Below are positions 1 through 49,045 of a stretch of DNA of 64,000 nt, piece by piece. The first letter of the stretch is position 1, and each line of letters opens with the position of its first letter. The stretch is taken from the NCBI GenBank assembly GCA_964369115.1, contig CAYJED010000004.1, positions 16,428 to 80,427 of the forward strand, in the 5' to 3' direction. The notes under the pieces were generated by a model, which saw only the letters and a list, made by a program, of their open reading frames with translations, had not been told where the DNA came from and did not search any database. Origin of the DNA: an uncultured Candidatus Saccharibacteria bacterium (GTDB lineage Bacteria > Patescibacteriota > Minisyncoccia > Phycocordibacterales > UBA5272). The position numbers and the translations under genes are program-made.

Positions 1-863
1 TCGCTTGGTTTCAGCTTAATCAGGGTAATGCAAATGCTTACCGTGAAGCAGCTCAAAAAGCTGGTAATGCTATCTTAGGGTTTATGATAATCGTTGCTCT
101 TATGGGTGGTATTTTCTTTGCTATCCTTAGAATGGCAGGAGTAAAGACAGAGTATCTTGATATCTTTAAAAATATCTTGGTCACGAGTTTGGTGGAGCGC
201 GCATATGCAATTGATGTTATTGATGGAGGTGCCATGATGGCAAGTTGTAGTTTTGAAGATCAGCGTATTTTTGGTACTAATTGTACGTTACAAAGTGGTA
301 CCCAGGGTCAGCCTTGTGGATCAAATTACACGTGCAGGTCTGGTTTTGAGTGTAATGCTCAAATGTTTTGTGAGAAAACCCCAAGCACTAACCCAACGTT
401 TGAAGAAGCATCTCAGGGCGCACAGGCTCCAAGAGAAAATATGATAGGTGGAAGCTGTGGAAGAGACGGTATTTGTTCTGAAGGGGTTTGTGATGGTGCA
501 AGCAATACGTGTGTTAGAGGAGCGTCAGCACAAGGAACATCTCAACAACAAGCTGCAAATGTTACCGGTTCACTTAATCCAACTAATGTTACAACGCTTT
601 ACGACTTCATCCTTAATATTCTTAGACTTGTGATGCGTTTCTTTGTGTTTCCAGCTCTTATTGCTATTTGGGTATGGACTGGATTTTCTTTTGTCCTCGC
701 CCAGGGTGCACCAGAAGCGCTCGCAAAGGCAAAGAAGCTTCTTCTTTGGGCAACAATAAGTACCTTTATTATCTTTATGATTCAGGCATTTATGACAGCG
801 GTCAGGGGTACGGTGCAAAAAGTTCTTTCAGAAAAGACAGAAATTATAGAAAGACATCTATAA
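1..863 (+). CDS. T4SS-pilin-like (TrbC/VirB2-like) two-TM membrane protein with Cys-rich ectodomain; 5' partial (frame open to window start)
   Basis: The ORF is open from nt 3, so the start lies upstream of the window. The C-terminal half has two hydrophobic helices (FFVFPALIAIWVWTGF and LLLWATISTFIIFMIQAF) arranged as in paralogs 933..1619 and 3743..4144. A Cys-rich module ENMIGGSCGRDGICSEGVCD is shared with the downstream gene. Confidence 0.5.
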   Translation, partial: AWFQLNQGNANAYREAAQKAGNAILGFMIIVALMGGIFFAILRMAGVKTEYLDIFKNILVTSLVERAYAIDVIDGGAMMASCSFEDQRIFGTNCTLQSGTQGQPCGSNYTCRSGFECNAQMFCEKTPSTNPTFEEASQGAQAPRENMIGGSCGRDGICSEGVCDGASNTCVRGASAQGTSQQQAANVTGSLNPTNVTTLYDFILNILRLVMRFFVFPALIAIWVWTGFSFVLAQGAPEALAKAKKLLLWATISTFIIFMIQAFMTAVRGTVQKVLSEKTEIIERHL

Positions 864-932
864 AAACAGGGAACAACTTCCTTGCACCTTCTCTGTTTAC
901 ATTGCTACACTTATCCATATAACTTATTTTTT

Positions 933-1619
933 ATGAAAGTACTACTCCTTACCGCACTATTTACGCTCACTGTTACAACTGCTTCTGCTCAATCTGTTGC
1001 TACTTTAACAGGAGGAATAGGAACTCTTGCTGGACTGATTGATGGGTTCACAGGAAAGGTAGTGCGCGCAACAGGGGGACTCTTTATGGCGCTTGCCATG
1101 ATTACCTTCTTTTACGGTGTTGTGGAATATATCTGGGGAGCGCGTCAAGGTGATGGTGATAGAGTAAAAAGAGGGAATGAATTTCTCAAGTGGAGTCTCG
1201 TGGCGCTCTTTGTGATGTTCTCGGTATATGGCATCATTCGTTTTGGACAAAGAATAGTTTTCGGAGATGCTGACGTTAGTCGTATTGTTATCCCTCAGCT
1301 TATTATGGGTGGAAGCTCTGGTAGTCCTGGTACGGGAAGTAACCCCGGTGGTTCTGTGGGTAGTCCTGGTACAGGGTCAGGGTTACCTTCTGGTCCAGCA
1401 GAAAACATGATAGGAGGAAGTTGTGGGAGAGATGGTATTTGTTCGGAAGGAACGTGTGACGCTGTAACTAATCGTTGTGTCCCATCTTCATCCGGAAATC
1501 CAGCTGGTCCAGCAGAAAACATGATAGGAGGAAGTTGTGGGAGAGATGGTATTTGTTCGGAAGGAACGTGTGACGCTGTAACTAATCGTTGTGTCCCATC
1601 TTCATCCGGAAATCCATGA
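933..1619 (+). CDS. T4SS-pilin-like secreted two-TM protein with two exact 38-aa Cys-rich C-terminal repeats
   Basis: An ATG at 933 follows a promoter-like AT-rich spacer. A signal peptide (MKVLLLTALFTLTVTTASA) is followed by two TM helices around the loop ARQGDGDRVKRG, then a Gly/Ser/Pro linker, then 2 x GPAENMIGGSCGRDGICSEGTCDAVTNRCVPSSSGNPA. Stop is TGA at 1617. Confidence 0.55.
   Translation: MKVLLLTALFTLTVTTASAQSVATLTGGIGTLAGLIDGFTGKVVRATGGLFMALAMITFFYGVVEYIWGARQGDGDRVKRGNEFLKWSLVALFVMFSVYGIIRFGQRIVFGDADVSRIVIPQLIMGGSSGSPGTGSNPGGSVGSPGTGSGLPSGPAENMIGGSCGRDGICSEGTCDAVTNRCVPSSSGNPAGPAENMIGGSCGRDGICSEGTCDAVTNRCVPSSSGNP
1392..1616. repeat. Exact tandem direct repeat, 114-bp unit x 2 (second copy 111 bp), coding for the Cys-rich module
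   Basis: 1392..1505 is identical to 1506..1616 by direct reading. Confidence 0.9.
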
Positions 1620-1819
1620 TCAGGCTCAAGTTCTTGCACACCAGGAGAAAGGTGTGGAGAAAATGGCATGGGTACCTGTGATGATGATTTCACTTGCGGG
1701 CCATACGAACTCTAAAATGAGAAGTATTGACAATTTATAAAAACCTTATATAATAAGATAAGGTAGGCCTGATTGTACTTTTTGACAAAGAAAACAGGCT
1801 TTTTGTTCTTAGACTTTTA

Positions 1820-2404
1820 GTGAGGTATCATATGTCTACTGCTTTGTCTTCGGAAGGGGTCTCTTTCTGGAAGAAGCTTCCTTGGCTTGCACGAATTGCT
1901 CTCCTGCTGGCTGTGTACATTCTCTTCATGGAGCTTATGGGATATTTCCTTGATCGCCAAGATGAGGCTTATCACAAAAGCCAAGTGAGGCGTGCAGATC
2001 TTGCTGAGCGAGAGATTGCAGTAAAAGAGCGCGAAGCTCGCCTGCTTGCTTCTGTTCAACCAAAACCTGCACAAGAAGAGGTTCCTGATGAAGCTGTTCC
2101 AAGTGCCTGTGGAGACGAAACGTCGCTTGCGGAATTTCTAAATAATCCGCCACAGGTTCAGTATTTTGAGAAAGCTTTCTCTTTGAGTATTGGCTGTGCT
2201 TTGGTTCGGCCAAGTTTCAAAGTCAAGAACGTTCAAGGTGATGGGTATACCATTTCATATGGACGCGATCCAGAAAAATACAACTGGTATCAGGAGAACT
2301 GCAGGTCTCAACATGAATGTCTCCGCATGTTTGCTCGCTATCAGCGAGAAGGCGGATCTTTCCGTATCACCATTCATCCTGGTGGTTCTGTTACTGTTCG
2401 ATAA
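1820..2404 (+). CDS. hypothetical membrane-anchored protein
   Basis: 194-aa ORF with an N-terminal TM segment (LPWLARIALLLAVYILFMELMGYF). No recognisable family. Confidence 0.4.
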   Translation: MRYHMSTALSSEGVSFWKKLPWLARIALLLAVYILFMELMGYFLDRQDEAYHKSQVRRADLAEREIAVKEREARLLASVQPKPAQEEVPDEAVPSACGDETSLAEFLNNPPQVQYFEKAFSLSIGCALVRPSFKVKNVQGDGYTISYGRDPEKYNWYQENCRSQHECLRMFARYQREGGSFRITIHPGGSVTVR

Positions 2405-2419
2405 AGAAAGGGGTTTCTG

Positions 2420-2788
2420 ATGTCAGACAAAAAAGATGACCATGGTCACGGTGATGACAAAAAATCACCCGTAAAGAAGCTTCTCGGATTCGCTGGACTG
2501 CTTCTTGCTGTTCTCGTCTTCGTGTACTTCCTTGCTGCTGTTTTGCCGGAAATTGTTCGAGGTAGCGGGTCATTGGCTCGTGAAACTGGAACTGCTGGCT
2601 TTCAGGCTGGGCAAGGTGGACGACACTTTGCTGCTGGGATGAGGGAGTTTCTTCGGGGTATGGTAAACGAACCTCTCAAGGTTCTTGCAACCTATGCTCT
2701 GGGCGCTCTAATCCTCTTCCTGATCATCAAAGAGATGATTGTTCCTTTATTCAAGAAGGATGATCATCACGGCGGCGGTCACCCTTAA
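2420..2788 (+). CDS. small membrane protein with His/Asp/Lys-rich termini
   Basis: 122 aa with two TM segments; N-terminal KKDDHGHGDDKK and C-terminal KKDDHHGGGHP. It is 16 nt downstream of the previous gene and has a GAAAGGGG RBS. Confidence 0.4.
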   Translation: MSDKKDDHGHGDDKKSPVKKLLGFAGLLLAVLVFVYFLAAVLPEIVRGSGSLARETGTAGFQAGQGGRHFAAGMREFLRGMVNEPLKVLATYALGALILFLIIKEMIVPLFKKDDHHGGGHP

Positions 2789-2839
2789 GGCTTTATGCCT
2801 TTCGTGAGACAACACGGTTAACAAACACTGCGGGTATTA

Positions 2840-2915
2840 CTCGCAGAGAGAGGTTTTCCTCTCGCATATTGCCCAGTCGCAGTATGCGATGGGTAAACCT
2901 CTCTTTTTCATTTTA
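2840..2915 (+). terminator. nested stem-loop structure followed by a T-run (candidate intrinsic terminator or structured RNA)
   Basis: agagagaggttt pairs with aaacctctct around the inner hairpin gcatattgc..gcagtatgc, then ttttcatttt follows. Confidence 0.35.
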
Positions 2916-3019
2916 TAAAAGTAAAATATTGACATATTATAAAATACTATGTATTATACTAATTAAATGGGAATAATTCCCAAACAGTACATTATCAAAA
3001 AGAAAAGAGGTGACTCTAT

Positions 3020-3568
3020 ATGTTAGACGATAAAGATAAAGGTGGTGATGATTTGGATGGTCGGTCACCTATTGACGTCATGAATGCTCTCTTTGCGAAG
3101 CTTAACGTGACTCCAATAAGTGAGATTTCACAAAAAGAAGTCCATGCGCGCGCTAAAGCACAAGCTGAAGCTCAGCTTTTGCAATCTCCAAAACCATCAC
3201 CTGATGCTCTTGAAGCAAAACCTGAGCCTATAAAGGTTGAGCCTCAGGTGGTTACGGGGAAGCATCCACTTCCAATAAATCATCCTTATCGTGTCGAAAC
3301 ACGTAGAAGGGCAGCAGAAATAGCAAGAGGGGTTGAAAGAATGAAAGGTGGGGAAATAAAGCCCCATCATCAGCCTGAAACTTCAAAAGAAACTGAAGAG
3401 GAAGGTCAAGATACCTTCATCTTTGGACTCTCACTTTTCCAGGTGCTCATGCTTATTGCTGTTGCTATTTTTGCAACCGCTGCCATAGAAAAAGGGATGC
3501 TCGGTAGTATCGATCAAATTCCTGAGCTTTTGGAAAAGCTTGTAAAATGGCTGTATTCGCTTCTCTAG
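3020..3568 (+). CDS. hypothetical protein with C-terminal TM helix
   Basis: 182-aa ORF with an AAGAGGTG RBS. The N-terminal half is charged and Pro-rich; a hydrophobic segment LSLFQVLMLIAVAIFATAAI lies near the C-terminus. Confidence 0.4.
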   Translation: MLDDKDKGGDDLDGRSPIDVMNALFAKLNVTPISEISQKEVHARAKAQAEAQLLQSPKPSPDALEAKPEPIKVEPQVVTGKHPLPINHPYRVETRRRAAEIARGVERMKGGEIKPHHQPETSKETEEEGQDTFIFGLSLFQVLMLIAVAIFATAAIEKGMLGSIDQIPELLEKLVKWLYSLL

Positions 3569-3587
3569 GCTTGTTTCGGTTACTTTA

Positions 3588-3635
3588 CCCACTTTTGTAT
3601 GGTCTATCCATGCAAAAGTGGGTTTTTTGTTTTTT
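3588..3635 (+). terminator. rho-independent terminator
   Basis: cccacttttg..caaaagtggg hairpin followed by ttttttgttttttc. Confidence 0.5.
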
Positions 3636-3742
3636 CTGGCAACGATAAAGTATCTTTTATAATAAAAATACTTTATTTTTCCACATTTTTCCTTGCAAAG
3701 CAGCTATTCCTTTATATACTTAAAGAATAACTAACTAATAGT

Positions 3743-4144
3743 ATGAAAAAAATCTTTACAACACTATCAATTATTGCAGGACAGTTTGCAGTAGCTTCTG
3801 CTCAGGCAACTATCACTATTGGGCAAGGAGCTCAGCAGGGGCAGGTTAACGGAGGGGCGATCCTCGGACTCCTTGCGCTTGCTCAGACTATCATTACTCG
3901 TCTTGTTCCATTTGCGGTAGGAGTTGCGGTGCTTGCATTCTTCTGGTTCCTTATTCAGTTTATTGTAAAAGGTTCTCAGGATCCACAGAAGCAGTCAGAT
4001 GCAAAAGCTGGTATGGGATGGTCTATTCTCGCGCTTTTCCTTATGGTGTCTATCTGGGGAATCATTGGTCTTATTGGAAGTATCTTCGGAGTTAATCAGG
4101 GAGGAAGTGTTCCAATTCCTGGTGTTCCAGTTCCAGCAAACTAA
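3743..4144 (+). CDS. T4SS-pilin-like (TrbC/VirB2-like) secreted two-TM protein
   Basis: Signal peptide, then TM helix (VGVAVLAFFWFLIQFIV), KGSQDP loop, second helix (GMGWSILALFLMVSIWGIIGLIG). Same core as 4172..4786 and 4789..5043. Confidence 0.55.
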   Translation: MKKIFTTLSIIAGQFAVASAQATITIGQGAQQGQVNGGAILGLLALAQTIITRLVPFAVGVAVLAFFWFLIQFIVKGSQDPQKQSDAKAGMGWSILALFLMVSIWGIIGLIGSIFGVNQGGSVPIPGVPVPAN

Positions 4145-4171
4145 ATATCTTAACTTAGGTATATATACAAT

Positions 4172-4786
4172 ATGAAAAAAGCGCTGCTTGCATTATGTGT
4201 TGTTGCTCTCGGCGCTTTTTTTGCACATGCTCAAATCCAACTTGGAGATGTTCGTGTAAACGTTGGGCAGACCTGTTGGACTATTGATGGAAAGCGTGGA
4301 TGTCGTAATCCTTCTACTGGACAGTGGCAGCAAGAAACAGGTGGAGGAAACATGATTGGAGGAAATACAAACACTGGACAGATTGGAGGGTCAGGAAGTA
4401 TTAATGGGAATCGTTTTGGTTTTGGAATTGGAGGAGGTTCTGCTGGAGGAGGGGGTGGTCTCGCATACGGGAGTCAGGTGTGTGCTGTAGTTAATAGCTT
4501 TACCGGTCTTGTGCGTCTCTTTGCGCTTGCGCAGTGTGTTGTGACGCTTTCTGTGCCACTTCTTGTTGGTGTTGCACTCCTTGCTTTCTTTTGGTTCCTT
4601 GTTGAGTTTATCTGGAAAGGTCGTAACGATCCTACTCATTATGCAAAAGCAAAAGTCGGAATGTTTTGGTCTATTGTAGCTCTCTTTGTAATGGTGTCTA
4701 TTTGGGGAATTATTGGATTTATTGGAGGAGTGCTTGGTATAGGGCAAGGCGGAGGAATGCCAGGGTTTAGACTTCCAGGTGAATAG
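4172..4786 (+). CDS. T4SS-pilin-like secreted two-TM protein with Gly-rich ectodomain
   Basis: Signal peptide, Gly-rich stretch (GGNMIGGNTNTGQIGGSGSINGNRFGFGIGGGSAGGGGG), then the conserved core LAFFWFLVEFIWKGRNDP...GMFWSIVALFVMVSIWGIIGFIG. Confidence 0.55.
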   Translation: MKKALLALCVVALGAFFAHAQIQLGDVRVNVGQTCWTIDGKRGCRNPSTGQWQQETGGGNMIGGNTNTGQIGGSGSINGNRFGFGIGGGSAGGGGGLAYGSQVCAVVNSFTGLVRLFALAQCVVTLSVPLLVGVALLAFFWFLVEFIWKGRNDPTHYAKAKVGMFWSIVALFVMVSIWGIIGFIGGVLGIGQGGGMPGFRLPGE

Positions 4787-4788
4787 GT

Positions 4789-5043
4789 ATGACTGACGAT
4801 AGAATTCTTGAAAAGATTTTAGTTGAAGTATTTTGGCCACTCTACCAGCTTGCACTTGGTCTTGCCTTTTGTTATTTCCTTTATGGAGCTTTTATGTTTA
4901 TTGTTAACATGAATGATCCTGAAAAAAAACTAAAAGGTCAGCGTCATCTTCTTTGGGGACTTATTGGACTTTTTATTATCTTTTCGGCAGGAGCTATAGT
5001 TCGTCTCTTTAATGACATGCTTGGCGGAATGTTTGTCTTCTAG
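4789..5043 (+). CDS. T4SS-pilin-like core-only paralog (no signal peptide)
   Basis: 84 aa with TM helix, NDPEKK loop and second helix (LLWGLIGLFIIFSAG). It starts 2 nt after the previous stop. Confidence 0.45.
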   Translation: MTDDRILEKILVEVFWPLYQLALGLAFCYFLYGAFMFIVNMNDPEKKLKGQRHLLWGLIGLFIIFSAGAIVRLFNDMLGGMFVF

Positions 5044-5126: not shown

Positions 5127-6548
5127 ATGAACGAGACACACCAAGAGCGTATGGAAAAAATTGTCTCCCTCTGTAAACGTAGGGGATTTATTTTTCCTTC
5201 ATCAGAAATTTATGGGGGATTTTCAGGAGTATATGACTATGGTCATTACGGAACACTTCTTTTTAATAATGTAAAAGAAGCGTGGAAAAAAAGTGTTGCT
5301 CAGGAACGTCTCGATATTTTTCTTTTGGATAGTGCTATTTTTATGCACCCAACGACATGGAAAGCTTCTGGTCACGTGGATGGATTTAATGATCCACAAG
5401 TAGACTGCCGTAAATGTAAAAGTCGCTTTCGTGCAGATCATATGCTTGAAGCGTTTGGTGTACAAGCAGATAAGCAAACACTTGAGTTTATTAACGCTGA
5501 ACTTGATAAACTCCGTATGGAGAAAAAGCTTGTCTGTGGTAACTGTAAAAGTGCTGACTTGACCTCCGCAAAAGTATTTTCACTTATGGTGAAATCAAAT
5601 CTCGGTTCCCCGGTAGATGCACTCTCAGAAGAAAATGTGGTATACCTTCGTCCAGAAACTTGTGGAGGAATTTATCTTGAATACAAGAATACCGTAGACT
5701 CACTACACCCAAAACTTCCTTTTGGTATTGCACAAGTTGGTAAGGCATTTCGTAATGAAATTGTTGCAAAGCAATTTGTGTTCAGAACACGTGAGTTTGA
5801 ACAGATGGAAATGCAGTATTTCCATCACCCACAAGACACAAAAGCTATTTTTGATGAATGGCATGCATACCGCTGGAATTTTTATCTTGATTATGGTATC
5901 CCTCATGAAAAACTTAATTGGTATAAACATGAGAAGCTTGCGCATTATGCCTCAGATGCATATGACATTGAGTACAACTACGCGATGCTTGGAGGTTTTA
6001 AAGAGCTTGAAGGAATTCATGCGCGAGGGGATTGGGACCTCTCACAGCACTCAAAGTTTTCAGGGCAAGATTTAAGTTATTTTGATGAAGCCACAAAAGA
6101 GCGATTTACTCCACATATTGTAGAAACTTCTGCGGGTGTAGCTCGTATGGCACTTGCTTTCTTGGATAACGCATATACTGAAGAAGAAGTTGGAGAAGCG
6201 CGCGAAGATGGTACAAAAGATATTCGTGCTGTGCTTAAGCTAGATAAGCGCCTTGCTCCAGTTAAGGTTGCTATTTTACCTCTTTCTAAAAAAGAAGAGC
6301 TTACTACTCCTGCTAAAGAGCTTTGGAAAACGCTCTCTAAAAAATTCTTTGTTGAATACGATGATACACAATCTATTGGAAAGCGTTATCGTCGTCAGGA
6401 TGAAATTGGTACGCCATACTGTGTGACGGTAGATTTTGATACGCTTACTGATAATGCTGTTACTGTGCGTGATAGAGATACCATGACTCAGGAGAGGGTT
6501 CCTCTTACTAACCTCACTCAATATCTCGTAGAAAAGCTTGAGAAGTAG
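5127..6548 (+). CDS. glyQS: glycine--tRNA ligase, alpha2 (GlyQS) type
   Basis: 473 aa. The N-terminus RGFIFPSSEIYGGFSGVYDYGHYG, a class II core and a C-terminal anticodon-binding region are typical of dimeric GlyRS. Confidence 0.85.
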   Translation: MNETHQERMEKIVSLCKRRGFIFPSSEIYGGFSGVYDYGHYGTLLFNNVKEAWKKSVAQERLDIFLLDSAIFMHPTTWKASGHVDGFNDPQVDCRKCKSRFRADHMLEAFGVQADKQTLEFINAELDKLRMEKKLVCGNCKSADLTSAKVFSLMVKSNLGSPVDALSEENVVYLRPETCGGIYLEYKNTVDSLHPKLPFGIAQVGKAFRNEIVAKQFVFRTREFEQMEMQYFHHPQDTKAIFDEWHAYRWNFYLDYGIPHEKLNWYKHEKLAHYASDAYDIEYNYAMLGGFKELEGIHARGDWDLSQHSKFSGQDLSYFDEATKERFTPHIVETSAGVARMALAFLDNAYTEEEVGEAREDGTKDIRAVLKLDKRLAPVKVAILPLSKKEELTTPAKELWKTLSKKFFVEYDDTQSIGKRYRRQDEIGTPYCVTVDFDTLTDNAVTVRDRDTMTQERVPLTNLTQYLVEKLEK

Positions 6549-6557
6549 ATTGGGTAT

Positions 6558-7019
6558 TTGTATATACGTATGTCTGAAATTAATCTTGAAAATAAAATAG
6601 AAAGTGATGGGGCAAAAAGTCTTAACACTAGTCTTAATCAAATCCAAGAACATTTAGAAGGACTTAAAACAAAAGATGACGAACATGACAAGTTGTTCTT
6701 TATTGTGTGTGAAGCTCTTAAAGAAGAAGGCTTAGATCTTCCAAATGAAAAAATGGAAGATATTCGAGAAATGAATATTGGAGATGATCACTTCATTGTC
6801 CTTCGTTTTAAGGATGGTGTTTCTATGAGTTTTAATAAAAACCAAGAAGCTATTTTAGCTAAAATTAAAGGTGATCAATATGTTATGGAAGGGGAGGAGG
6901 TGAGATCTTATAGAGAAAAATACTACAATTACCTTGCAGCATTTCTTATTATGAAAAATAAGATTATTGATGGGAAGTCAAGATTAGCGAAAACACGACT
7001 GGAAAAACTAGGTATTTAA
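6558..7019 (+). CDS. hypothetical protein
   Basis: 153-aa ORF. An alternative start lies at 6570 (MSEIN...). No family recognised. Confidence 0.35.
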   Translation: MYIRMSEINLENKIESDGAKSLNTSLNQIQEHLEGLKTKDDEHDKLFFIVCEALKEEGLDLPNEKMEDIREMNIGDDHFIVLRFKDGVSMSFNKNQEAILAKIKGDQYVMEGEEVRSYREKYYNYLAAFLIMKNKIIDGKSRLAKTRLEKLGI

Positions 7020-7042
7020 GTAATTTTAAGAAAATAATACGC

Positions 7043-7071
7043 TTGCAACATAAGAGAAAATAGGGTATAAT
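7043..7071 (+). promoter_or_regulatory. sigma70-like promoter for rpmG
   Basis: TTGCAA, 17-bp spacer, TATAAT (7043-7048 and 7066-7071). Confidence 0.45.
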
Positions 7072-7080
7072 AGATAAATT

Positions 7081-7242
7081 ATGGCAAAGGCACAAGATAA
7101 TCTCATTCAGCTCAAGAACAAGGAAACGGGTGAAGTCTACTGGACTTCTAAGAACCGAAAGCTTGTTACTCGTAAGATTGAACTTAAGAAGTATTCAAAG
7201 AAGCTTCGTAAGCACATTACTTTTAAGGAAAGCAAGAAGTAA
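7081..7242 (+). CDS. rpmG: 50S ribosomal protein L33
   Basis: 53 aa (MAKAQDNLIQLKNKETGEVYWTSKNRKLVTRKIELKKYSKKLRKHITFKESKK), matching the L33 pattern TKNKR..P.KLEL.KY......H..FKE.K. It is below the 60-aa cutoff of the ORF track. Confidence 0.8.
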   Translation: MAKAQDNLIQLKNKETGEVYWTSKNRKLVTRKIELKKYSKKLRKHITFKESKK

Positions 7243-7294: not shown

Positions 7295-7410
7295 GAGAGA
7301 TCTTGTAATTTTTGTATTTTGTGGTATAATTATAAATAGTCGGACCTGTATTTCTGGTCTGGCTTTTTTCTCCAACACACATACCTCTAGATGAGGTGAA
7401 AGGGTTTCAG

Positions 7411-8208
7411 ATGAAAAAGCTCATTGGCATCTTTGCTGCAGTACTGATGCTCGCCACGGGTGTCGCGCAGGCGGGGGTGATTCAGACGATGGACTTCAGC
7501 GGGCCGGTTGCTACCGGTTCGTCGCAAGCTCCGAACGTCTGGTACACCGATCGCTATGCGCCGGCCGGCTTCCAGGTTTCTGGCAGCCAGCTTCACCTGA
7601 CCGTCGACGAGACCGGCGCTGCAGCGAATCGCGGCGGGGCCTATTCCTCAACGTTCTACGACACCCAGGGTCGCAAGTACGACTTGCAACCCGAGGTGAC
7701 CGCGGTTTCCGTCGACATGTACATCGCGCAAGAGTTCGCGTCGGCGAACCAGCGTATCGGCGGCTTGTGGGGGACGGCTTTCACCGCTTCCGACATGATC
7801 GCTGGTGTCTACCCGATCCTCGAGTTCGCGAGTGACGGCGGCGTTGCGCGTTTCCAAGGATGGGATGCTGCAACCGGCTGGAAGAACTACGGCTTGCCGT
7901 CTGGTTTTTCCTACGACACCATGTACACGCTCGGGTTCGCTCTGAACGACGGCATGGTGGACTACCTGCTGAACGGTGAATTGCTCGGCTCGGTGAATGC
8001 CTTCGGCGGTGAATACCTCGGTAACGCGATGCTGCAAGGCATCAACAAGTTCCAGGTGGGTGATGACTTCGATTCGCGCACGATCGTGTTCGACAATCTG
8101 GTCGCATCCAGCTCGGTGCCGGAGCCCGCAAGTCTTGCGCTTGCCTCCTTGGCCTGTGCCGGCGTGTTCTTCACCCGTCGGCGTAACGATAAGAAGTCGC
8201 CGGAGTAA
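7411..8208 (+). CDS. PEP-CTERM-anchored secreted protein (high-GC, likely foreign)
   Basis: An ATG at 7411 lies 11 nt after AGGTGA. The product has a signal peptide and ends in VPEPASLALASLACAGVFFTRRR, a PEP-CTERM sorting signal (VPEP motif, TM helix, Arg cluster). GC is about 60% against about 37% in the flanks. A TTGTAA-16-TATAAT promoter lies at 7303-7330. Confidence 0.6.
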   Translation: MKKLIGIFAAVLMLATGVAQAGVIQTMDFSGPVATGSSQAPNVWYTDRYAPAGFQVSGSQLHLTVDETGAAANRGGAYSSTFYDTQGRKYDLQPEVTAVSVDMYIAQEFASANQRIGGLWGTAFTASDMIAGVYPILEFASDGGVARFQGWDAATGWKNYGLPSGFSYDTMYTLGFALNDGMVDYLLNGELLGSVNAFGGEYLGNAMLQGINKFQVGDDFDSRTIVFDNLVASSSVPEPASLALASLACAGVFFTRRRNDKKSPE

Positions 8209-8318: not shown

Positions 8319-8389
8319 GGGCCTATAGTTTAGTGGCAGAACAACGGCCTCCAAATCCGTTGGTCGAGGTTCGATTCCTCGTGGGCCCG
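8319..8389 (+). tRNA. tRNA-Trp (anticodon CCA)
   Basis: Cloverleaf: acceptor stem GGGCCTA/TGGGCCC, anticodon loop CUCCAAA with U33 and A37 giving anticodon CCA, T-arm GAGGTTCGATTCCTC. No CCA is encoded. The rpmG then tRNA-Trp order is a common bacterial arrangement. Confidence 0.65.
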
Positions 8390-8445
8390 CAAAAAGTAAA
8401 ATCTCGTAAGATACAATCTTACGAGATTTTACTTTTTGCGGGCCC
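8383..8445. repeat. perfect 30-bp-stem palindrome overlapping the 3' end of tRNA-Trp
   Basis: gggcccgcaaaaagtaaaatctcgtaagat, loop aca, atcttacgagattttactttttgcgggccc. The left arm begins inside the tRNA acceptor 3' strand. Confidence 0.8.
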
Positions 8446-33202: not shown

Positions 33203-33728
33203 GGGTTATCTCTCCTTGTAAATGTTCAAACTCGGTTTACATTGCCGAAACAATTTGCCACAGATTGTGACTCCTACAATAATAGCATGAAAGTAGTAAA
33301 AAGTCAAGGTAAAAAACATAGTAAAAACAGCGTTTTTTAGACGCTGTTTTTACTTTCTAGCACCCTTCTCGTGCTAGCTGTTGAAGGTGAGCCAGTACTA
33401 TCTAGGGTGGAACACCATTGAAAACGAGATAATAAAATGGAAAACAGTTTTCAATAAGTACCCGAACCGACTTTTAGCACTAACTAATTATGAATAATAT
33501 CTATATTTTACAATCTTTTCATAGAAAAACCATCAAAAAGATTTTCTAATTTATATACCGTATCTGGTATAGAACTATGCATTAGTGAGTAAAATCAAGC
33601 AAAAACCTAACCTTGACATTATTGTTTACCAATGCTATAATATAACAACTGAACTAACCCTAAATGAAAGAGGGAAAGTTAGTCGGTGTATGTTACGAAA
33701 ACATACATGCTCATTACAGGAGAAAGAC

Positions 33729-34058
33729 ATGAGCCATTTCGATGAGAAGGACAACTTGTTCGGGCCTGCTCGCGCCTCCATGCGTGCACGTCTCGGCGAG
33801 TTCATGGATGTCTACATGGATGCCAAAATCAAGATCGCCCAGAAGCTGGCCGACAAGATCGCCGGCGAAAATGATGTCGAACAACTGATGGCACTCCGCG
33901 CCAAGTTGAACGATGTCATGTTCGCTGAAGATGACATCACCCAGCTGGATACGAAGATCAAGGCGCTGTTGGCGATGTTGCAGACGAACGCAACTGCCTT
34001 CATCACTCTTCGACAGCAGTGGAAGTCGTCCATCGAGGACACTCACGGCCGTCATTGA
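33729..34058 (+). CDS. hypothetical protein, high-GC gene within the AT-rich element
   Basis: An ATG at 33729 follows AGGAGAAAG. 109 aa, acidic and helical, about 55% GC. Confidence 0.45.
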   Translation: MSHFDEKDNLFGPARASMRARLGEFMDVYMDAKIKIAQKLADKIAGENDVEQLMALRAKLNDVMFAEDDITQLDTKIKALLAMLQTNATAFITLRQQWKSSIEDTHGRH

Positions 34059-34476
34059 GCCCTGTCCAGCTTCAAAAAAAGCCCTACTTCGGTAGGGCTT
34101 TTTTCTATACTAAATTTATCTGTTATAACAGAGAAATAACAGATAATTAGCGTAACTATTCCGACTATCTTTTTTGTTGTTATAACAACCAAAAAACAAC
34201 TATTTTTAGTAAAACTTTTTATCTCATTCTGATTGTTATAACAATCAAATAACAATTACGGAGCTGTTTACCAATTGTGATATAATACACACATAAACCT
34301 AACCCTTTCTATCACTAAAAAGGTATGGTTTTCAAAATCACGCTAAATGATAAAGATCTCCCAATGAGCTCTCACATTTAGCGTGTCGTATCTGGAAACG
34401 GATACGGGCCGGGTAACTGGCCAGAGGTTCGTTGGGAGTTTTTTGCTTTTATAAATAAAAATCACGCTAAATAATT

Positions 34477-34992
34477 ATGAGTACAAATACAAAAAAGATT
34501 TGCAAATACTGTAAATCTGAAATCATTTTGTCTGCTAAAAAATGTCCACAATGTCAGTCGGACCTTCGTAACTGGTTTGTAAGACACTGGATTATTTCAA
34601 TACTTATCGGACTTGTTGTTCTTGGAATAATAGGATCAGGATCAAACAAAAATACAACGACTGATAGTTCAAAAATACCGCAAGGATCAACTGAAAAACA
34701 ATCAGGTAAACAATATGTAGAGGTGGTGAGGTTTAGTGGAAAGGGTCAGAAAAGTTCAGAACCTTTCAAGATCAGTGGAAGTAGGTTCAAAGTTACTTAC
34801 GATTGTAAGGGTGACACCGCGACTACATATTGTGGAGCTTTTGCGTATAAAGTCGGTAGCAATATACCTCAAGGTGTTATGAATGCCACACAAGCAGTAA
34901 AGGATGAAACTGTTATATATGGATCTGGTGAATATTACATAACAGCTAACACAATGGGTGATTTTTCTATGGTTATTTACGACTATAAGTAA
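34477..34992 (+). CDS. zinc-ribbon membrane protein
   Basis: N-terminal CKYC..CPQC zinc ribbon, a TM helix, then an extracellular beta-rich domain. Confidence 0.45.
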   Translation: MSTNTKKICKYCKSEIILSAKKCPQCQSDLRNWFVRHWIISILIGLVVLGIIGSGSNKNTTTDSSKIPQGSTEKQSGKQYVEVVRFSGKGQKSSEPFKISGSRFKVTYDCKGDTATTYCGAFAYKVGSNIPQGVMNATQAVKDETVIYGSGEYYITANTMGDFSMVIYDYK

Positions 34993-35044
34993 CAAAAACA
35001 ATAACTCATTATCGTGGTAAAATACATATAAGTTATAGAACTTT

Positions 35045-35734
35045 ATGGACGGTAATGAGGACTTCAACAAGAGCACATATTGGGTACTTTCTGAACTCAA
35101 AGAAGAGAGTTTTGTGCTTTCGGATAACGATCAAGAAATAGAATTTTGTTTTGATGGTAGAAAAAGCTCACCAGATAAAAAAGTTCAAGATAGGGTGCTT
35201 CGTTTTCTCGAGAAAGAAAAAGCTGTTTCCCTTACAGCGTTTTATATAAAACCAAAGCCACTAAAAAACCTAACTAGAAATTTTGATACCTATGGGTATG
35301 GACCAATTGGATATGATGTAAAACTACTACAGCCGAGATTTGATGAACTGTACAATGAATATTCTGCTTTCAAGTCAAACAAAAATAATAAAGAGCAGTA
35401 TCAGTTCAATCTCACTATCTATCACGACAGAGGAACATTTTTTGTTGATGAGAAGAGAAAAATAGAATTCAGAAATCTTATAAGACCACTTATTATTGAG
35501 ATACTGTATAAAGCAAAAGGTAAAGATGTTGCTTCGGATAAAATAAAAACAGGGCTACAGAAAAAACTACTGAAAGATGGGCACGTTGATAATATCACAA
35601 GTATCATTGACGATATGCGCAAGAGTATAAAAAAGCACCTAAAGATAGATCCTAAAATAGTTCTACCTGATGGTGTTTCTGGTCCTGGTTACAGAATTGG
35701 AGATATCGAAATCAATATTGTAAGAGAAAAATAG
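35045..35734 (+). CDS. hypothetical protein
   Basis: 229-aa ORF; no family recognised. Confidence 0.4.
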   Translation: MDGNEDFNKSTYWVLSELKEESFVLSDNDQEIEFCFDGRKSSPDKKVQDRVLRFLEKEKAVSLTAFYIKPKPLKNLTRNFDTYGYGPIGYDVKLLQPRFDELYNEYSAFKSNKNNKEQYQFNLTIYHDRGTFFVDEKRKIEFRNLIRPLIIEILYKAKGKDVASDKIKTGLQKKLLKDGHVDNITSIIDDMRKSIKKHLKIDPKIVLPDGVSGPGYRIGDIEINIVREK

Positions 35735-35858
35735 ATAAGACCTTGTAGGTATGGTGTGAATTATCATACTGAACAGCTTACTTTGTAACGGTTTCTGAAT
35801 TCCTATAAGGTCGTAATGGGTATGTAATAGGCCCATACATATTTCCTACAATGTTTTT

Positions 35859-36011
35859 ATGACGCTCGAAGAGTTCATAAAAACAATAGGCAAAGAAGCG
35901 GATGGACTATCTCAAGAAGAGATTGAGTTTTACTATACCGTAACAGTAAAAACCTTCGATATATTTTTTGATAGATACAAGAAAGAAAAAATGTTGGTAG
36001 CACACGGATAA
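35859..36011 (+). CDS. small hypothetical protein upstream of recombinase (possible directionality or regulatory factor)
   Basis: 50-aa ORF MTLEEFIKTIGKEADGLSQEEIEFYYTVTVKTFDIFFDRYKKEKMLVAHG. It ends 31 nt before the recombinase. Confidence 0.25.
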   Translation: MTLEEFIKTIGKEADGLSQEEIEFYYTVTVKTFDIFFDRYKKEKMLVAHG

Positions 36012-36042
36012 TTCATCATAAAAATGATAAAATATAACTATA

Positions 36043-37830
36043 ATGGACCAACCAATTTATGTCATAGGGTATGCTAGAGTGAGTACCCCAAAACAAGCTC
36101 AAACTGGTGAGAGTTTGGAGGCACAAGAAAAAGCAATAAGAAAATATTGTGAAAAGAAAGGATATGCCCTCTTTCCTGATAACAAAGTTTTCAAAGAGCC
36201 ATATTCTGGGAGTAATCTTTTCAGGCCAGCATACAGAGAAATACTAGGAATTATAAAGAACAATATACATTCAAAAACAAAGGTAAAATATTTAGTATTT
36301 TGGGACTTTGATCGTCTCACGAGAGGAGGTTCGGCTGATTATGATCAGATATGGAAAGATGTTTCTGAATATGGCGTTGAATTGAGAGATACAACAGAAA
36401 TAATTCAAGAGGAAGTAAATATTATAAAGGAAGAGTTTGGTCTTGATATTGAATATGGTTGGAGCACAGCCAGACCAAGTGAAGAAGCTGAAAAAACAAA
36501 AGCAGAAGACGCAAGGAAACATAAGCGAAAAATATTGCAGACAATGATAACGGCGGAGATCCGTCTAACGATAGATGGCTATCACATAGGAAGACCTGAT
36601 TATGGTTTTCAAAACAAAAAGATTTTTGTGGGCACAAAGAAAAAATGTATCCAGGAAAGATTTGAACCCGAAGCGGTATTTGTTGAAAGAATATACAAAC
36701 TTCGTGCTGAAGGGGTGCTTTCTGATCAAGAAATTTGTAACGATGTGAATACTTTAGGATATAAAAGTAGAACTTTCAATAAATGGAACAAAGACAAGAC
36801 AAAAGTGTTGAGTGTTTCCGGGGGCAATAAACTGACCATAAAGCAGTTACAAGATATGATCAAGCGTTTTACTTACTGTGGTGTTATCTGTGAACGGTGG
36901 ACCAAATATCAGCCGATAAAAGCAAAGTATGAAGGTCTTGTGACTGTTGATCAGTGGAATACAGCAAACAGAGGTAAGGTTCAATTGGAAATAGGAGACG
37001 ACGATTATTTCACTTTGCTAAAAGATGTAAATATTCATAGTAAGAAGCGTAAAAAATATAACCCTAACTTTCCTTTCAAAGGTGTTTTGATGTGTGAAGT
37101 ATGTGGTAAGGTGATGAAGGCAAGCGCTTCAACTGGTAAAAGTGGGAAACCTTTTCCGGCTTATCATTGTGGTAGAGGTCACAAAAATAACGGTATCCCT
37201 AAAAAAGAACTTGAAGATGCTTTCAATAATTACTTGGAAAAGATAAAATTCACTGATAAGTTCTTGAATATTTTTGAAAAGACAGTTTATCTACAATTCA
37301 GAAAGAGAGAAGGAGAGCTTGCTGATTATACAAGCAAGGCAAATATCAATGTTGGAGAATTAGAAGCGCAGAAATCTGCACTTATAAAGTCATTCCCAGC
37401 AGCAACTCACCCAGAGGTTAGAAAAGGAATAGAAGATGAGATAACTAAACTGCAAGACGAGATTGCTAAAGCAAGATCACAAAGAGATAAAATGGAGATC
37501 GAAGAAGCTGACGTTGAGAATTTTATTGCTTGGTGTAAGGAAACAATGGAACACCCAACAAAAATCCTTACAGATATTAGGTCCGAGCAAGAATTAGCGA
37601 ACACTTTTTTACTTTTCTTTGAGAAGTTTCCTACCTATACAGAATTAGTTAGTGGAACACCTAAACTATCTTTAGTTTTCAAGCTTTCAGAAGAATTCAA
37701 GGTCAATCAAGACCTGTTGGTGAGCCAGTACTATCTAGGGTGGAACACCATTGAAAACGAGATAATAAAATGGAAAACAGTTTTCAATAAGTACCCGAAC
37801 CGACTTTTAGCACTAACTAATTATGAATAA
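36043..37830 (+). CDS. large serine recombinase (attP-form C-terminus)
   Basis: N-terminal resolvase domain (IGYARVSTPKQAQTGESLEAQ), a recombinase domain, a zinc ribbon (CEVCGKV...HCGRGH) and a coiled coil. The last 37 codons are encoded by the left end of copy 2. Confidence 0.85.
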   Translation: MDQPIYVIGYARVSTPKQAQTGESLEAQEKAIRKYCEKKGYALFPDNKVFKEPYSGSNLFRPAYREILGIIKNNIHSKTKVKYLVFWDFDRLTRGGSADYDQIWKDVSEYGVELRDTTEIIQEEVNIIKEEFGLDIEYGWSTARPSEEAEKTKAEDARKHKRKILQTMITAEIRLTIDGYHIGRPDYGFQNKKIFVGTKKKCIQERFEPEAVFVERIYKLRAEGVLSDQEICNDVNTLGYKSRTFNKWNKDKTKVLSVSGGNKLTIKQLQDMIKRFTYCGVICERWTKYQPIKAKYEGLVTVDQWNTANRGKVQLEIGDDDYFTLLKDVNIHSKKRKKYNPNFPFKGVLMCEVCGKVMKASASTGKSGKPFPAYHCGRGHKNNGIPKKELEDAFNNYLEKIKFTDKFLNIFEKTVYLQFRKREGELADYTSKANINVGELEAQKSALIKSFPAATHPEVRKGIEDEITKLQDEIAKARSQRDKMEIEEADVENFIAWCKETMEHPTKILTDIRSEQELANTFLLFFEKFPTYTELVSGTPKLSLVFKLSEEFKVNQDLLVSQYYLGWNTIENEIIKWKTVFNKYPNRLLALTNYE

Positions 37831-38061
37831 TATCTATATTTTACAATCTTTTCATAGAAAAACCATCAAAAAGATTTTCTAATTTATATACCGTATCTGG
37901 TATAGAACTATGCATTAGTGAGTAAAATCAAGCAAAAACCTAACCTTGACATTATTGTTTACCAATGCTATAATATAACAACTGAACTAACCCTAAATGA
38001 AAGAGGGAAAGTTAGTCGGTGTATGTTACGAAAACATACATGCTCATTACAGGAGAAAGAC

Positions 38062-38391
38062 ATGAGCCATTTCGATGAGAAGGACAACTTGTTCGGGCCT
38101 GCTCGCGCCTCCATGCGTGCACGTCTCGGCGAGTTCATGGATGTCTACATGGATGCCAAAATCAAGATCGCCCAGAAGCTGGCCGACAAGATCGCCGGCG
38201 AAAATGATGTCGAACAACTGATGGCACTCCGCGCCAAGTTGAACGATGTCATGTTCGCTGAAGATGACATCACCCAGCTGGATACGAAGATCAAGGCGCT
38301 GTTGGCGATGTTGCAGACGAACGCAACTGCCTTCATCACTCTTCGACAGCAGTGGAAGTCGTCCATCGAGGACACTCACGGCCGTCATTGA
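38062..38391 (+). CDS. hypothetical protein (identical copy of 33729..34058)
   Basis: Exact duplicate. Confidence 0.45.
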   Translation: MSHFDEKDNLFGPARASMRARLGEFMDVYMDAKIKIAQKLADKIAGENDVEQLMALRAKLNDVMFAEDDITQLDTKIKALLAMLQTNATAFITLRQQWKSSIEDTHGRH

Positions 38392-38809
38392 GCCCTGTCC
38401 AGCTTCAAAAAAAGCCCTACTTCGGTAGGGCTTTTTTCTATACTAAATTTATCTGTTATAACAGAGAAATAACAGATAATTAGCGTAACTATTCCGACTA
38501 TCTTTTTTGTTGTTATAACAACCAAAAAACAACTATTTTTAGTAAAACTTTTTATCTCATTCTGATTGTTATAACAATCAAATAACAATTACGGAGCTGT
38601 TTACCAATTGTGATATAATACACACATAAACCTAACCCTTTCTATCACTAAAAAGGTATGGTTTTCAAAATCACGCTAAATGATAAAGATCTCCCAATGA
38701 GCTCTCACATTTAGCGTGTCGTATCTGGAAACGGATACGGGCCGGGTAACTGGCCAGAGGTTCGTTGGGAGTTTTTTGCTTTTATAAATAAAAATCACGC
38801 TAAATAATT

Positions 38810-39325
38810 ATGAGTACAAATACAAAAAAGATTTGCAAATACTGTAAATCTGAAATCATTTTGTCTGCTAAAAAATGTCCACAATGTCAGTCGGACCTTC
38901 GTAACTGGTTTGTAAGACACTGGATTATTTCAATACTTATCGGACTTGTTGTTCTTGGAATAATAGGATCAGGATCAAACAAAAATACAACGACTGATAG
39001 TTCAAAAATACCGCAAGGATCAACTGAAAAACAATCAGGTAAACAATATGTAGAGGTGGTGAGGTTTAGTGGAAAGGGTCAGAAAAGTTCAGAACCTTTC
39101 AAGATCAGTGGAAGTAGGTTCAAAGTTACTTACGATTGTAAGGGTGACACCGCGACTACATATTGTGGAGCTTTTGCGTATAAAGTCGGTAGCAATATAC
39201 CTCAAGGTGTTATGAATGCCACACAAGCAGTAAAGGATGAAACTGTTATATATGGATCTGGTGAATATTACATAACAGCTAACACAATGGGTGATTTTTC
39301 TATGGTTATTTACGACTATAAGTAA
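38810..39325 (+). CDS. zinc-ribbon membrane protein (identical copy)
   Basis: Exact duplicate of 34477..34992. Confidence 0.45.
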   Translation: MSTNTKKICKYCKSEIILSAKKCPQCQSDLRNWFVRHWIISILIGLVVLGIIGSGSNKNTTTDSSKIPQGSTEKQSGKQYVEVVRFSGKGQKSSEPFKISGSRFKVTYDCKGDTATTYCGAFAYKVGSNIPQGVMNATQAVKDETVIYGSGEYYITANTMGDFSMVIYDYK

Positions 39326-39377
39326 CAAAAACAATAACTCATTATCGTGGTAAAATACATATAAGTTATAGAACTTT

Positions 39378-40067
39378 ATGGACGGTAATGAGGACTTCAA
39401 CAAGAGCACATATTGGGTACTTTCTGAACTCAAAGAAGAGAGTTTTGTGCTTTCGGATAACGATCAAGAAATAGAATTTTGTTTTGATGGTAGAAAAAGC
39501 TCACCAGATAAAAAAGTTCAAGATAGGGTGCTTCGTTTTCTCGAGAAAGAAAAAGCTGTTTCCCTTACAGCGTTTTATATAAAACCAAAGCCACTAAAAA
39601 ACCTAACTAGAAATTTTGATACCTATGGGTATGGACCAATTGGATATGATGTAAAACTACTACAGCCGAGATTTGATGAACTGTACAATGAATATTCTGC
39701 TTTCAAGTCAAACAAAAATAATAAAGAGCAGTATCAGTTCAATCTCACTATCTATCACGACAGAGGAACATTTTTTGTTGATGAGAAGAGAAAAATAGAA
39801 TTCAGAAATCTTATAAGACCACTTATTATTGAGATACTGTATAAAGCAAAAGGTAAAGATGTTGCTTCGGATAAAATAAAAACAGGGCTACAGAAAAAAC
39901 TACTGAAAGATGGGCACGTTGATAATATCACAAGTATCATTGACGATATGCGCAAGAGTATAAAAAAGCACCTAAAGATAGATCCTAAAATAGTTCTACC
40001 TGATGGTGTTTCTGGTCCTGGTTACAGAATTGGAGATATCGAAATCAATATTGTAAGAGAAAAATAG
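39378..40067 (+). CDS. hypothetical protein (identical copy)
   Basis: Exact duplicate of 35045..35734. Confidence 0.4.
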   Translation: MDGNEDFNKSTYWVLSELKEESFVLSDNDQEIEFCFDGRKSSPDKKVQDRVLRFLEKEKAVSLTAFYIKPKPLKNLTRNFDTYGYGPIGYDVKLLQPRFDELYNEYSAFKSNKNNKEQYQFNLTIYHDRGTFFVDEKRKIEFRNLIRPLIIEILYKAKGKDVASDKIKTGLQKKLLKDGHVDNITSIIDDMRKSIKKHLKIDPKIVLPDGVSGPGYRIGDIEINIVREK

Positions 40068-42091: not shown

Positions 42092-42125
42092 GAAGCCTGT
42101 GTCCTAGCCGATAGACGATAGGGCC
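42051..42125 (-). tRNA. tRNA-Glu (anticodon CUC), CCA encoded
   Basis: The reverse complement folds as a cloverleaf: acceptor GGCCCTA/TAGGGTC, anticodon stem CAGGC/GCCTG with loop UUCUCAU, T-arm CGGAG-TTCGACT-CTCCG, 3' ACCA. Confidence 0.7.
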
Positions 42126-49041: not shown

Positions 49042-49045
49042 TGAA

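Follow-up and report, generated by a model that had tools for sequence, protein, structure and literature searches.

A conserved chromosomal array of T4SS_pilin-family genes with variable ectodomains in a genome of the Candidate Phyla Radiation

Five pilin-type genes in an eight-gene array

The stretch analyzed here, referred to as the window, comprises 64,000 nucleotides (positions 16,428 to 80,427, forward strand) of contig CAYJED010000004.1 from the assembly GCA_964369115.1 of an uncultured Candidatus Saccharibacteria bacterium. Its nt 1-5043 carry eight plus-strand genes, named A to H, of which five (A, B, F, G and H) are of the type IV secretion system (T4SS) pilin type. The initial annotation, made from the letters alone, had described a cluster of these five genes, and all five open reading frames (ORFs) are present on the plus strand where it placed them. 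The first is a real frame but not a whole gene, as the start of the window cuts the 364-aa protein A. Moreover, the cluster contains three further genes, C, D and E, the first two of them being conserved components of the locus. The five pilin genes fall within 5 kb, with F, G and H contiguous and A and B set apart by C, D and E, that is, by more than one spacer.

Each of the five proteins contains two strongly hydrophobic helices with a loop of 14-19 residues between them, and since A holds two such hairpins, there are six cores in five genes. Hydropathy and charge tables revealed that the loops of all six cores are net basic (K+R > D+E) and contain no Cys. The shared two-helix core is borne out by significant pairwise BLASTP matches (F-G 2.6e-23, B-G 3e-8, B-F 8e-7, A-H 1e-5, F-H 3e-5 and B-H 4e-5), even though the global identity among the paralogues is 18-29%; F and G reach 59% over the core. 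The loop motifs of the initial annotation recur as KGSQDP in F, KGRNDP in G, NDPEKK in H and QGDGDR in B. Its second-helix motif S[IV]WGIIG is exact in F and G, but reads SVYGIIR in B and differs in A and H.

The best Pfam family of all five genes is PF18895 (T4SS_pilin), with 20.0 bits for the A fragment, 21.3 for B, 28.3 for F, 28.4 for G and 33.1 for H. Relative to the gathering cut-off of 26.6 bits, F, G, H and the full-length A (P0001; 29.7 bits, in two stretches) lie above, while B and the A fragment lie below. The only recurrent secondary matches, all of them weak, are to TrbC/VirB2, DUF4134 and Mbov_0395, which are other conjugative-pilin families. The scores against the Mbov_0395 family NF045849 (cut-off 40 bits) are 26.0 bits for H, 22.3 for F and 15.9 for G, and TrbC was matched by three of the 18 H orthologues at E ≤ 0.1, by none better than E 0.006. 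The proposal that these are T4SS-pilin-like proteins is therefore upheld by PF18895, whereas the TrbC/VirB2 model does not reach its own cut-off.

The proteins also have the layout of PF18895, a helix pair with a short basic loop, about 70 aa in total, and the helix pairs were modeled by AlphaFold2 (AF2) with a predicted local distance difference test score (pLDDT) of 78-91. Hydropathy and charge are consistent with the pilin-like transmembrane (TM) topology proposed earlier, and four of the five pilin genes carry Sec-type signal peptides, H being the one that does not. An origin of the array by chance or artefact was rejected, given the BLAST and hidden Markov model (HMM) statistics and the presence of the same locus in independent assemblies. 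We place the array in PF18895 and in the published class of VirB2-like arrays of Patescibacteria.

A fused double pilin and four single-core genes

Gene A (plus strand, nt 1-863, open frame from nt 3) is represented in the window by the 3' 286 codons of a double-core pilin whose start lies upstream. The full-length gene, encoding 364 aa, was found at nt 6141-7235 of the related locus L001 (contig JACCDT011373239.1). This locus was reached through an exact protein match of F, is 98.4-98.9% identical in DNA and extends 6.3 kb further upstream. There, A consists of a signal peptide, a short segment with two Cys, core 1, an insert, core 2 and a short tail. In the window, the loop and second helix of core 1 (QLNQGNANAYREAAQKAGN and AILGFMIIVALMGGIFFAILRM; nt 12-134), recognized by PF18895 and hhalign, are followed on the plus strand by an inter-core insert of 157 aa with 10 Cys (nt 135-605), which includes a ENMIGGSCGRDGICSEG module at nt 424-536. 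Core 2 (nt 606-803, plus strand) comprises a helix, a AQGAPEALAKAKKL loop and a helix, and corresponds to a PF18895 stretch at residues 197-266 of the fragment.

Core 1 is recognized across the family: among the core-1 segments of eight members, PF18895 matched all eight (E 4.7e-6 to 0.31), was the best family in four and reached 27.0 bits in one. The two cores of A align with each other in identical register (hhalign, E 8.7e-5), and they align with the single-core genes at E 5e-4 (core 1) and 2.3e-6 (core 2). In the AF2 model, A forms four long helices (pLDDT 78-91), and its insert is poorly defined.

Both cores are present in 120 out of 120 database homologues of A, and a profile search of 1.84 billion representatives found 121 clusters (50% identity) at E ≤ 1e-30 and 413 at E ≤ 1e-10. 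Within the 120 members, the inter-core linker is 35-40 aa at its minimum, while inserts reach 263 aa and tails 389 aa. Elsewhere there are more cores per protein, three in P0004 and eight in P0312. The double-core pilin P0192 bears an HExxH motif in its tail, and consecutive genes of a Patescibacteria locus (L035:9925-16481, on a contig of JGI 3300029288) specify a protein of 820 aa with eight PF18895 cores in tandem, a single pilin, a pilin-PKD fusion and a PKD-repeat protein of 718 aa.

Gene B (plus strand, nt 933-1619) encodes a signal peptide, one core (nt 1068-1247), a G/P/S-rich linker and a C-terminal tail of 123 aa with two Cys modules. Although its 21.3 bits fall below the PF18895 cut-off, B was assigned to the family by PF18895 as its best match and by its BLASTP similarity to G and F. 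The exact B protein is present in a public collection (P0121). Its AF2 model shows a helical hairpin (pLDDT 79-91) and a beta-hairpin for each module. Among the relatives of B, the core is kept while the type and number of modules change, and internal tandem repeats occur in 12 of 66 tails.

The remaining three genes are simpler or differently extended. Gene F (plus strand, nt 3743-4144) encodes a signal peptide and one core (nt 3902-4090) with no ectodomain, and its orthologues occur in every complete related locus in one to three copies. Gene G (plus strand, nt 4172-4786) has a signal peptide, a Gly-rich N-terminal ectodomain of 105 aa with four Cys (nt 4235-4549) and a core at nt 4550-4738; paralogues with similarly long N-termini are found in L014, L015, L019, L020, L026 and L028. 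Gene H (plus strand, nt 4789-5043) is a minimal core of 84 aa lacking both a signal peptide and an ectodomain, and is the last gene of the array in every locus. PF18895 was matched by all 18 H orthologues (best E 1e-11), and their mean column identity of 70% is the highest of the paralogues. The Gly-rich region noticed in the initial annotation is thus the N-terminal part of G, and F and H are essentially devoid of ectodomains.

Placement of the ectodomains and the cysteine module

Sequence beyond the cores is added at three positions only: at the N-terminus (G), between the cores (A) and at the C-terminus (B). Because the basic loop is predicted to lie in the cytoplasm, the N-terminus, the inter-core linker and the C-terminus would all face outward, which is the VirB2 topology; this prediction is backed by the charge distribution and the signal peptides. 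All 24 ectodomain Cys fall in the predicted outside segments. Furthermore, the Cys counts are nearly always even, in 120 of 120 inter-core inserts of the A family and in 64 of 64 tails of the B family (0-251 aa long), with odd counts in only three of the 120 C-terminal tails of the A family. Such numbers fit disulfide-bonded extracellular modules.

The Cys-rich module described in the initial annotation is real. In B, it forms a tandem pair of four-Cys modules (plus strand, nt 1390-1502 and 1504-1616) that arose as a perfect 114-nt (38-codon) duplication. The module, ENMIGGSCGRDGICSEG, spans 38 aa with the pattern ENMIGGSCGRDGICSEGxC...C, and the copy in A is 67% identical. The ectodomains had been considered unrelated to one another, but A and B share the Cys-module region (43% identity over 91 aa, BLASTP E 3e-15). 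Among 189 retrieved proteins, the module is confined to the closest B relatives and to A of the present strain. As the initial annotation had expected, the Cys modules have no Pfam counterpart. AF2 predicts them as small beta-hairpins (pLDDT about 70-83), for which Foldseek ranked knottin toxins and hevein domains highest, at E 1.8-3, which is not significant and can serve as a lead only.

A 20-nt string coding for (E/G)NMIGG occurs four times in the 64 kb (0 expected), at nt 434-453, 1400-1419, 1514-1533 and 4345-4364. Each of the four opens an ectodomain module in A, B or G, and G is otherwise without similarity to the Cys module. The string may be a shared module leader or a recombination microhomology.

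Conserved order of the locus

The same gene order recurs in 22 loci from GTDB species genomes and in several metagenome contigs. It starts with gyrA, methyltransferase, the solute-binding protein (SBP) gene SBP_bac_1, A and B; after an interval of about 2 kb come the F-type genes, one to three in number, and then H, glyS and rpmG. Every paralogue is represented by a separate orthologue in the related loci, only the F type varies in copy number, and the position of the ectodomain is characteristic of each paralogue across these loci. The fixed order SBP-A-B-C-D-F(n)-H in about 22 related species implies that the paralogues are old, distinct subunits. At the same time, the pilins diverge faster than their surroundings, with 35-67% identity across the related loci vs 84-91% for gyrA. 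The metagenome-assembled genomes (MAGs) that carry homologues or syntenic loci are named Parcubacteria, Paceibacterota, Pacebacteria or Nomurabacteria, with some third-party annotation (TPA) records named Saccharibacteria. These names suggest a Paceibacteria/Parcubacteria-type lineage of the Candidate Phyla Radiation (CPR).

On the 3' side of the array, the glyS products of the related loci (L020, L021, L024-L026 and L028-L032) fall into two classes, with about 82-87% vs about 46-50% identity to the window protein. As gyrA stays at 84-91%, this suggests that part of the lineage acquired a divergent glyS in place of the original one.

On the 5' side, an orphan, TM-anchored SBP_bac_1 gene (L001:4840-6135, just upstream of window nt 1) precedes A in all related loci. 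The gap between the two genes is 1-7 nt in L001, L007 and the distant L033, and larger in other related loci. No ABC (ATP-binding cassette) permease or ATPase gene was found near the SBP gene. A functional link between SBP and A is possible, and is inseparable from the synteny of the lineage. One could go further and regard A and the small membrane proteins as a conduit that, together with the orphan SBP, imports host nutrients, the pilin likeness being a matter of remote ancestry. The conserved adjacency, tight even in L033, and the missing ABC partners would agree with such an accessory of solute uptake. However, the methyltransferase and gyrA are equally syntenic, so that the adjacency may reflect shared ancestry, none of the proteins matches a transporter family, and hypervariable Cys-rich ectodomains would be unexpected on a permease. 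We regard this explanation as highly improbable.

Origin of the variability

The ectodomains were described as hypervariable from the window alone, and the comparison with relatives agrees. The A alleles P0001 and P0003 have nearly identical flanks, with 145 of 147 residues identical on the N-terminal side and 92 of 100 on the C-terminal side, around inserts (117 and 147 aa) that are not related to each other; a further A allele, P0002, lacks the ENMIGG module. Near-identical cores with unrelated inserts in sister strains indicate that the inserts are replaced as cassettes. In B, there is an allele with one module (P0317) and an otherwise identical one with two (P0316). This difference in copy number could also stem from the collapse of the perfect repeat by short-read assemblers; the short-read contigs L002-L004 break inside copy 2.

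Between the window and L001, genes C, D and F show no differences. Those that exist cluster in two stretches, nt 267-600 of G (dS 0.17) and nt 8-144 of B, and the hot spot of recombination in this comparison is G. The ratio of nonsynonymous to synonymous substitution rates (dN/dS) between the window and L001 is 0.13-0.22 (Nei-Gojobori), and that of GlyRS is 0.10. Positive selection was rejected on the basis of these values, the former being near that of GlyRS. Donors of silent cassettes in the style of pilE/pilS were rejected as well, since no DNA or protein similarity to the array was found elsewhere in the 64-kb window. Clustered differences together with low dN/dS argue for recombination and cassette turnover, and not for positive selection on substitutions. 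As far as the sequences tell, the variability is a matter of recombination, cassette or indel turnover and module copy number in the ectodomains, and not of accelerated substitution in recent duplicates.

These results bear on a different view of the array, in which the five genes are interchangeable recent duplicates that form an antigenic or phase-variation repertoire, driven by positive selection against host defences or phages, as proposed for Bartonella Trw and Anaplasma VirB2. Several features resemble such a repertoire, namely the low global identity of the paralogues, the hypervariable ectodomains, the in-frame perfect tandem repeat in B with its one-copy and two-copy alleles, and the mosaic recombination tracts in G and B. 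They are outweighed by the one-to-one orthologues in fixed order in about 22 species, with the F type alone varying in copies, by a dN/dS similar to that of GlyRS, by the ectodomain positions specific to each paralogue, and by the absence of silent cassettes or extra pilin copies from the 64-kb window. We therefore consider a repertoire of this kind improbable. The diversifying selection among paralogues that the initial annotation had suggested is likewise not supported, given their separate orthologues in about 22 species, the 70% conservation of H and the low dN/dS; of its overall interpretation, the pilin-like family stands and diversifying selection among recent paralogues does not.

Genes C, D and E and the surroundings of the array

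Two of the three genes between B and F are conserved non-pilin genes. Gene C (plus strand, nt 1820-2404) encodes a bitopic membrane protein whose C-terminal domain contains four conserved Cys, and was detected by jackhmmer in 12 of 18 related loci, each time between B and F. Gene D (plus strand, nt 2420-2788) encodes a protein with two TM helices, a charged N-terminus and a His-rich C-terminus, whose predicted topology is opposite to that of the pilins; it was detected by jackhmmer directly 3' of C in 11 of the 18. Gene E (plus strand, nt 3020-3568) encodes 182 aa with a C-terminal TM helix. It is specific to the present strain group, with no homologue in any of the 18 related loci and no Pfam match.

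An identity of C or D as VirB8-, VirB3- or PrgI-like proteins was rejected, as neither the single proteins nor all alignment members gave a recurrent Pfam match. Profile searches of the PDB with C and D returned only low-complexity or helical noise (haemagglutinin HA2, designed helical proteins). The homologue search with the C profile yielded only two proteins, as low-complexity words saturated the candidates.

Consensus matches provide candidate transcription signals. A promoter-like site with 12 of 12 consensus positions lies 5' of C (plus strand, nt 1727-1754), and another precedes E (nt 2929-2957). A strong terminator-like hairpin (nt 3587-3623), followed by a promoter-like site (nt 3636-3663), both on the plus strand, would separate E from F-G-H. 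These putative signals suggest separate transcription units SBP-A-B, C-D, E and F-G-H.

HMMs of the pilin core revealed no further pilin gene in nt 5101-64000 of the window. The window was also scanned with Pfam, covering every ORF of 400 aa or more plus 20 others, mostly of 200-380 aa, with most ORFs below 200 aa outside the scan and several of the scanned ones without a family. This yielded housekeeping, restriction-modification, recombinase and reverse transcriptase genes. Four regions beyond the array deserve a separate description.

At nt 7396-8208 (plus strand), a gene for a secreted protein of 270 aa has a PEP-CTERM end (PF07589, 21.5 bits with a cut-off of 20.7). Its G+C content is 60%, vs 40% for the genome, and it lies between rpmG and a tRNA-Trp gene (nt 8319-8390), and is also present in the independent assemblies L001, L002 and L005. 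Because PEP-CTERM/exosortase is a Gram-negative system, the gene has the appearance of a foreign sequence that a monoderm CPR genome acquired recently beside a tRNA gene.

Two near-perfect tandem duplications, each with 19 mismatches, were observed further downstream. The first (nt 33373-42067) is 4.36 kb in size with a period of 4333; each copy encodes a large serine recombinase (nt 36043-37830 and 40376-42091), and the second ends at a tRNA-Glu gene (nt 42051-42125). It represents either two integrated small mobile elements or an assembly artefact. The second (nt 55799-62569) is 3.4 kb in size with a period of 3369. Each of its copies carries a minus-strand ORF of 613 aa without a Pfam match, and an RVT_1 reverse transcriptase gene follows at nt 62377-63480. 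Between the two, nt 46965-55700 hold a restriction-modification or defence-like block with a ParB_N-methylase fusion, two more N6_N4 DNA methylases and a 764-aa ResIII/DEAD helicase.

Discussion

The locus is probably best understood as the 3' portion of a conserved, chromosomally encoded VirB2-like pilin array, the products of which would be assembled by a T4SS encoded elsewhere into a surface structure with the ectodomains in contact with the host. Pilus formation and the link to a secretion machine are what we infer here. In such a scheme, the proteins would be inserted into the membrane through Sec/YidC, and a T4SS of the VirB4/VirB6 type, encoded elsewhere in the genome, would extract them or arrange them in a surface structure that resembles a pilus or lines a channel. 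Its body would consist of the bare, conserved H and F, while A, B and G would expose disulfide-stabilised modules that touch the surface of the host cell. In A, the covalent double core would keep two unlike hairpins side by side, and the insert would loop out from between them. The binding specificity could then shift between strains through cassette replacement, recombination tracts and changes in module copy number.

Several observations weigh against this reading. The cut-off of the TrbC/VirB2 model PF04956 (27.9 bits) was not reached by any of the genes, the best being H with 17.3 bits (E 0.0058). The profile of the H orthologues matched no PDB sequence at E ≤ 10, so that no solved pilin was found, and Foldseek searches with the AF2 models gave no match at E ≤ 0.001, only unspecific helical-hairpin ones. 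H also has no signal peptide. As regards the machine, no VirB4, VirB6, VirD4 or other T4SS gene appeared among the scanned ORFs of the window, and none was found in the 10 kb around the array in more than 25 related loci. For L001, L007, L009, L033 and L035, this result covers the called genes for which Pfam assignments had been precomputed. The array instead lies among housekeeping and other genes, namely gyrA, the methyltransferase, SBP, glyS and rpmG. To our knowledge, no PF18895 protein has been experimentally shown to polymerise, and a helical filament of the VirB2 type could hardly accommodate ectodomains of 100-390 aa on each of its subunits. Given that neither a score above the PF04956 cut-off nor a linkage to virB genes was found, membership in the experimentally defined TrbC/VirB2 family is not established.

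Another possibility would be a surface display that is independent of any T4SS. The PF18895 hairpins would then be stable membrane anchors of two helices (four in A) for variable, disulfide-rich adhesin or enzyme domains exposed by an ultrasmall, wall-poor cell, and SBP-A-B-C-D-F-H would form a membrane complex of their own with no pilus. The distance of the array from T4SS genes and its fixed housekeeping context in all related loci speak for this explanation, as do the large and diverse appended domains (the HExxH tail of P0192, the PKD domain of L035), the fusions with two, three and eight cores, the unrelated conserved membrane proteins C and D inside the array, and the SBP gene that is almost translationally coupled to A. 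On the other hand, the bare cores H and F are the best conserved, which is hard to explain for a mere anchor, the profile similarity is to conjugative pilin families alone, and PF18895 relatives lie inside T4SS loci and are essential in other Patescibacteria. We judge a pilus-independent display to be unlikely, albeit a serious competitor of the T4SS-assembled surface structure that we favour.

A bolder proposal can be made across these two explanations. SBP-A-B-C-D-F(n)-H may constitute a self-contained surface organelle of Paceibacteria-type CPR bacteria, put together with or without a distant T4SS from a constant set of different pilin-fold subunits, among which the covalent double hairpin would be obligatory. 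The exchangeable, disulfide-knotted cassettes at three topologically equivalent sites would then be the host-range determinants of an epibiont, replacing the missing VirB5-type adhesin in a monoderm pilus. This is a speculative idea that we consider unlikely.

The locus provides testable candidates for a host-contact surface, as an orthologous set of subunits with distinct architectures. The strain-variable, disulfide-rich modules on A, B and G sit where a VirB2-type topology would expose them, and the fusions of two, three and eight cores show which hairpins are neighbours and thereby constrain assembly models. If the cassettes set the host range, comparing metagenomes could reveal the hosts of uncultured CPR strains. 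Should the proteins, on the contrary, never leave the membrane, PF18895 would be a general anchor fold and not a pilin, and its annotation would have to be revised.

Comparison with known systems

The closest counterparts are the VirB2 arrays of Patescibacteria, and the remark of the initial annotation that small pilins of this kind are common in CPR-type genomes agrees with published arrays of 2-11 genes (PMC12102498; PMC10633639). Quinonero-Coronel et al. (2025) screened 3,035 genomes of Patescibacteria for PF04956 and PF18895 and reported 441 such arrays of 2-11 genes in 383 assemblies, with a mean identity of 25% (PMC12102498). VirB4 was present in 2417 of the 3035 assemblies (about 80%), and a pilin gene was near virB4 in only 1135 of 1948 (PMC12102498). 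The present five pilin genes fall within the array definition of that study. They share with those arrays the Pfam family, divergent tandem or interspersed pilin genes, a paralogue identity of about 25% and a monoderm CPR host. Unlike them, the present array lies outside a T4SS locus, fixed between gyrA and glyS, and contains one covalent double core and three members with modular Cys- or Gly-rich ectodomains.

In Candidatus Southlakia epibionticum, epibiotic growth requires the six-gene pilin array of a T4SS locus (Wang et al. 2023; PMC10633639; PMC12857230). That organism belongs to the Saccharimonadia, whereas the present lineage is Paceibacteria-like. A 2025 review stressed that there is no precedent for a pilus of this kind in a monoderm (PMC12857230). 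In the literature found on patescibacterial VirB2-like arrays, the coverage of which was partial, fused cores, appended ectodomains and cassette turnover are not mentioned. We treat the array itself as one of a known kind, and its fused cores, ectodomains and cassette turnover as new.

The experimentally defined pilins TrbC/VirB2/TraA (Agrobacterium VirB2, RP4 TrbC, F TraA) resemble the present proteins in their two-helix hairpin, short basic loop, signal peptide, termini predicted to lie outside and weak profile similarity. They differ in that the present scores are below the cut-off, no solved pilin is matched in sequence and no virB genes are adjacent. Classical pilins are about 70-120 aa long, carry no extra domains and are in some cases cyclised, in contrast to the inserts and tails of 100-390 aa and the multi-core fusions described here.

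Tandem amplification of T4SS pilins is also found in Bartonella Trw (TrwL) and Anaplasma phagocytophilum, where a wider interaction with host surfaces or immune evasion was proposed (cited in PMC12102498). The amplification and sequence variation are common to both cases. However, the Bartonella and Anaplasma paralogues are recent, of similar size and located in the T4SS loci of diderm pathogens of eukaryotes, while the present ones are old, diverse in architecture and each endowed with orthologues of its own. Mbov_0395 (NF045849), from an integrative and conjugative element (ICE) of Mycoplasma, is likewise a two-helix pilin-like protein of a T4SS in a wall-less or monoderm organism, with sub-threshold similarity to the present proteins; that family, in contrast, is ICE-borne, single-copy and free of ectodomains.

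Finally, the tip adhesin VirB5 and the minor pilins of type IV pili offer a functional analogy only, in that a few specialised subunits bind the target on a filament of small subunits; they have no sequence or fold relationship to A, B and G. Because the patescibacterial T4SS lacks VirB5 (PMC12857230), A, B and G could, by this analogy, fill a VirB5-like role as adhesins.

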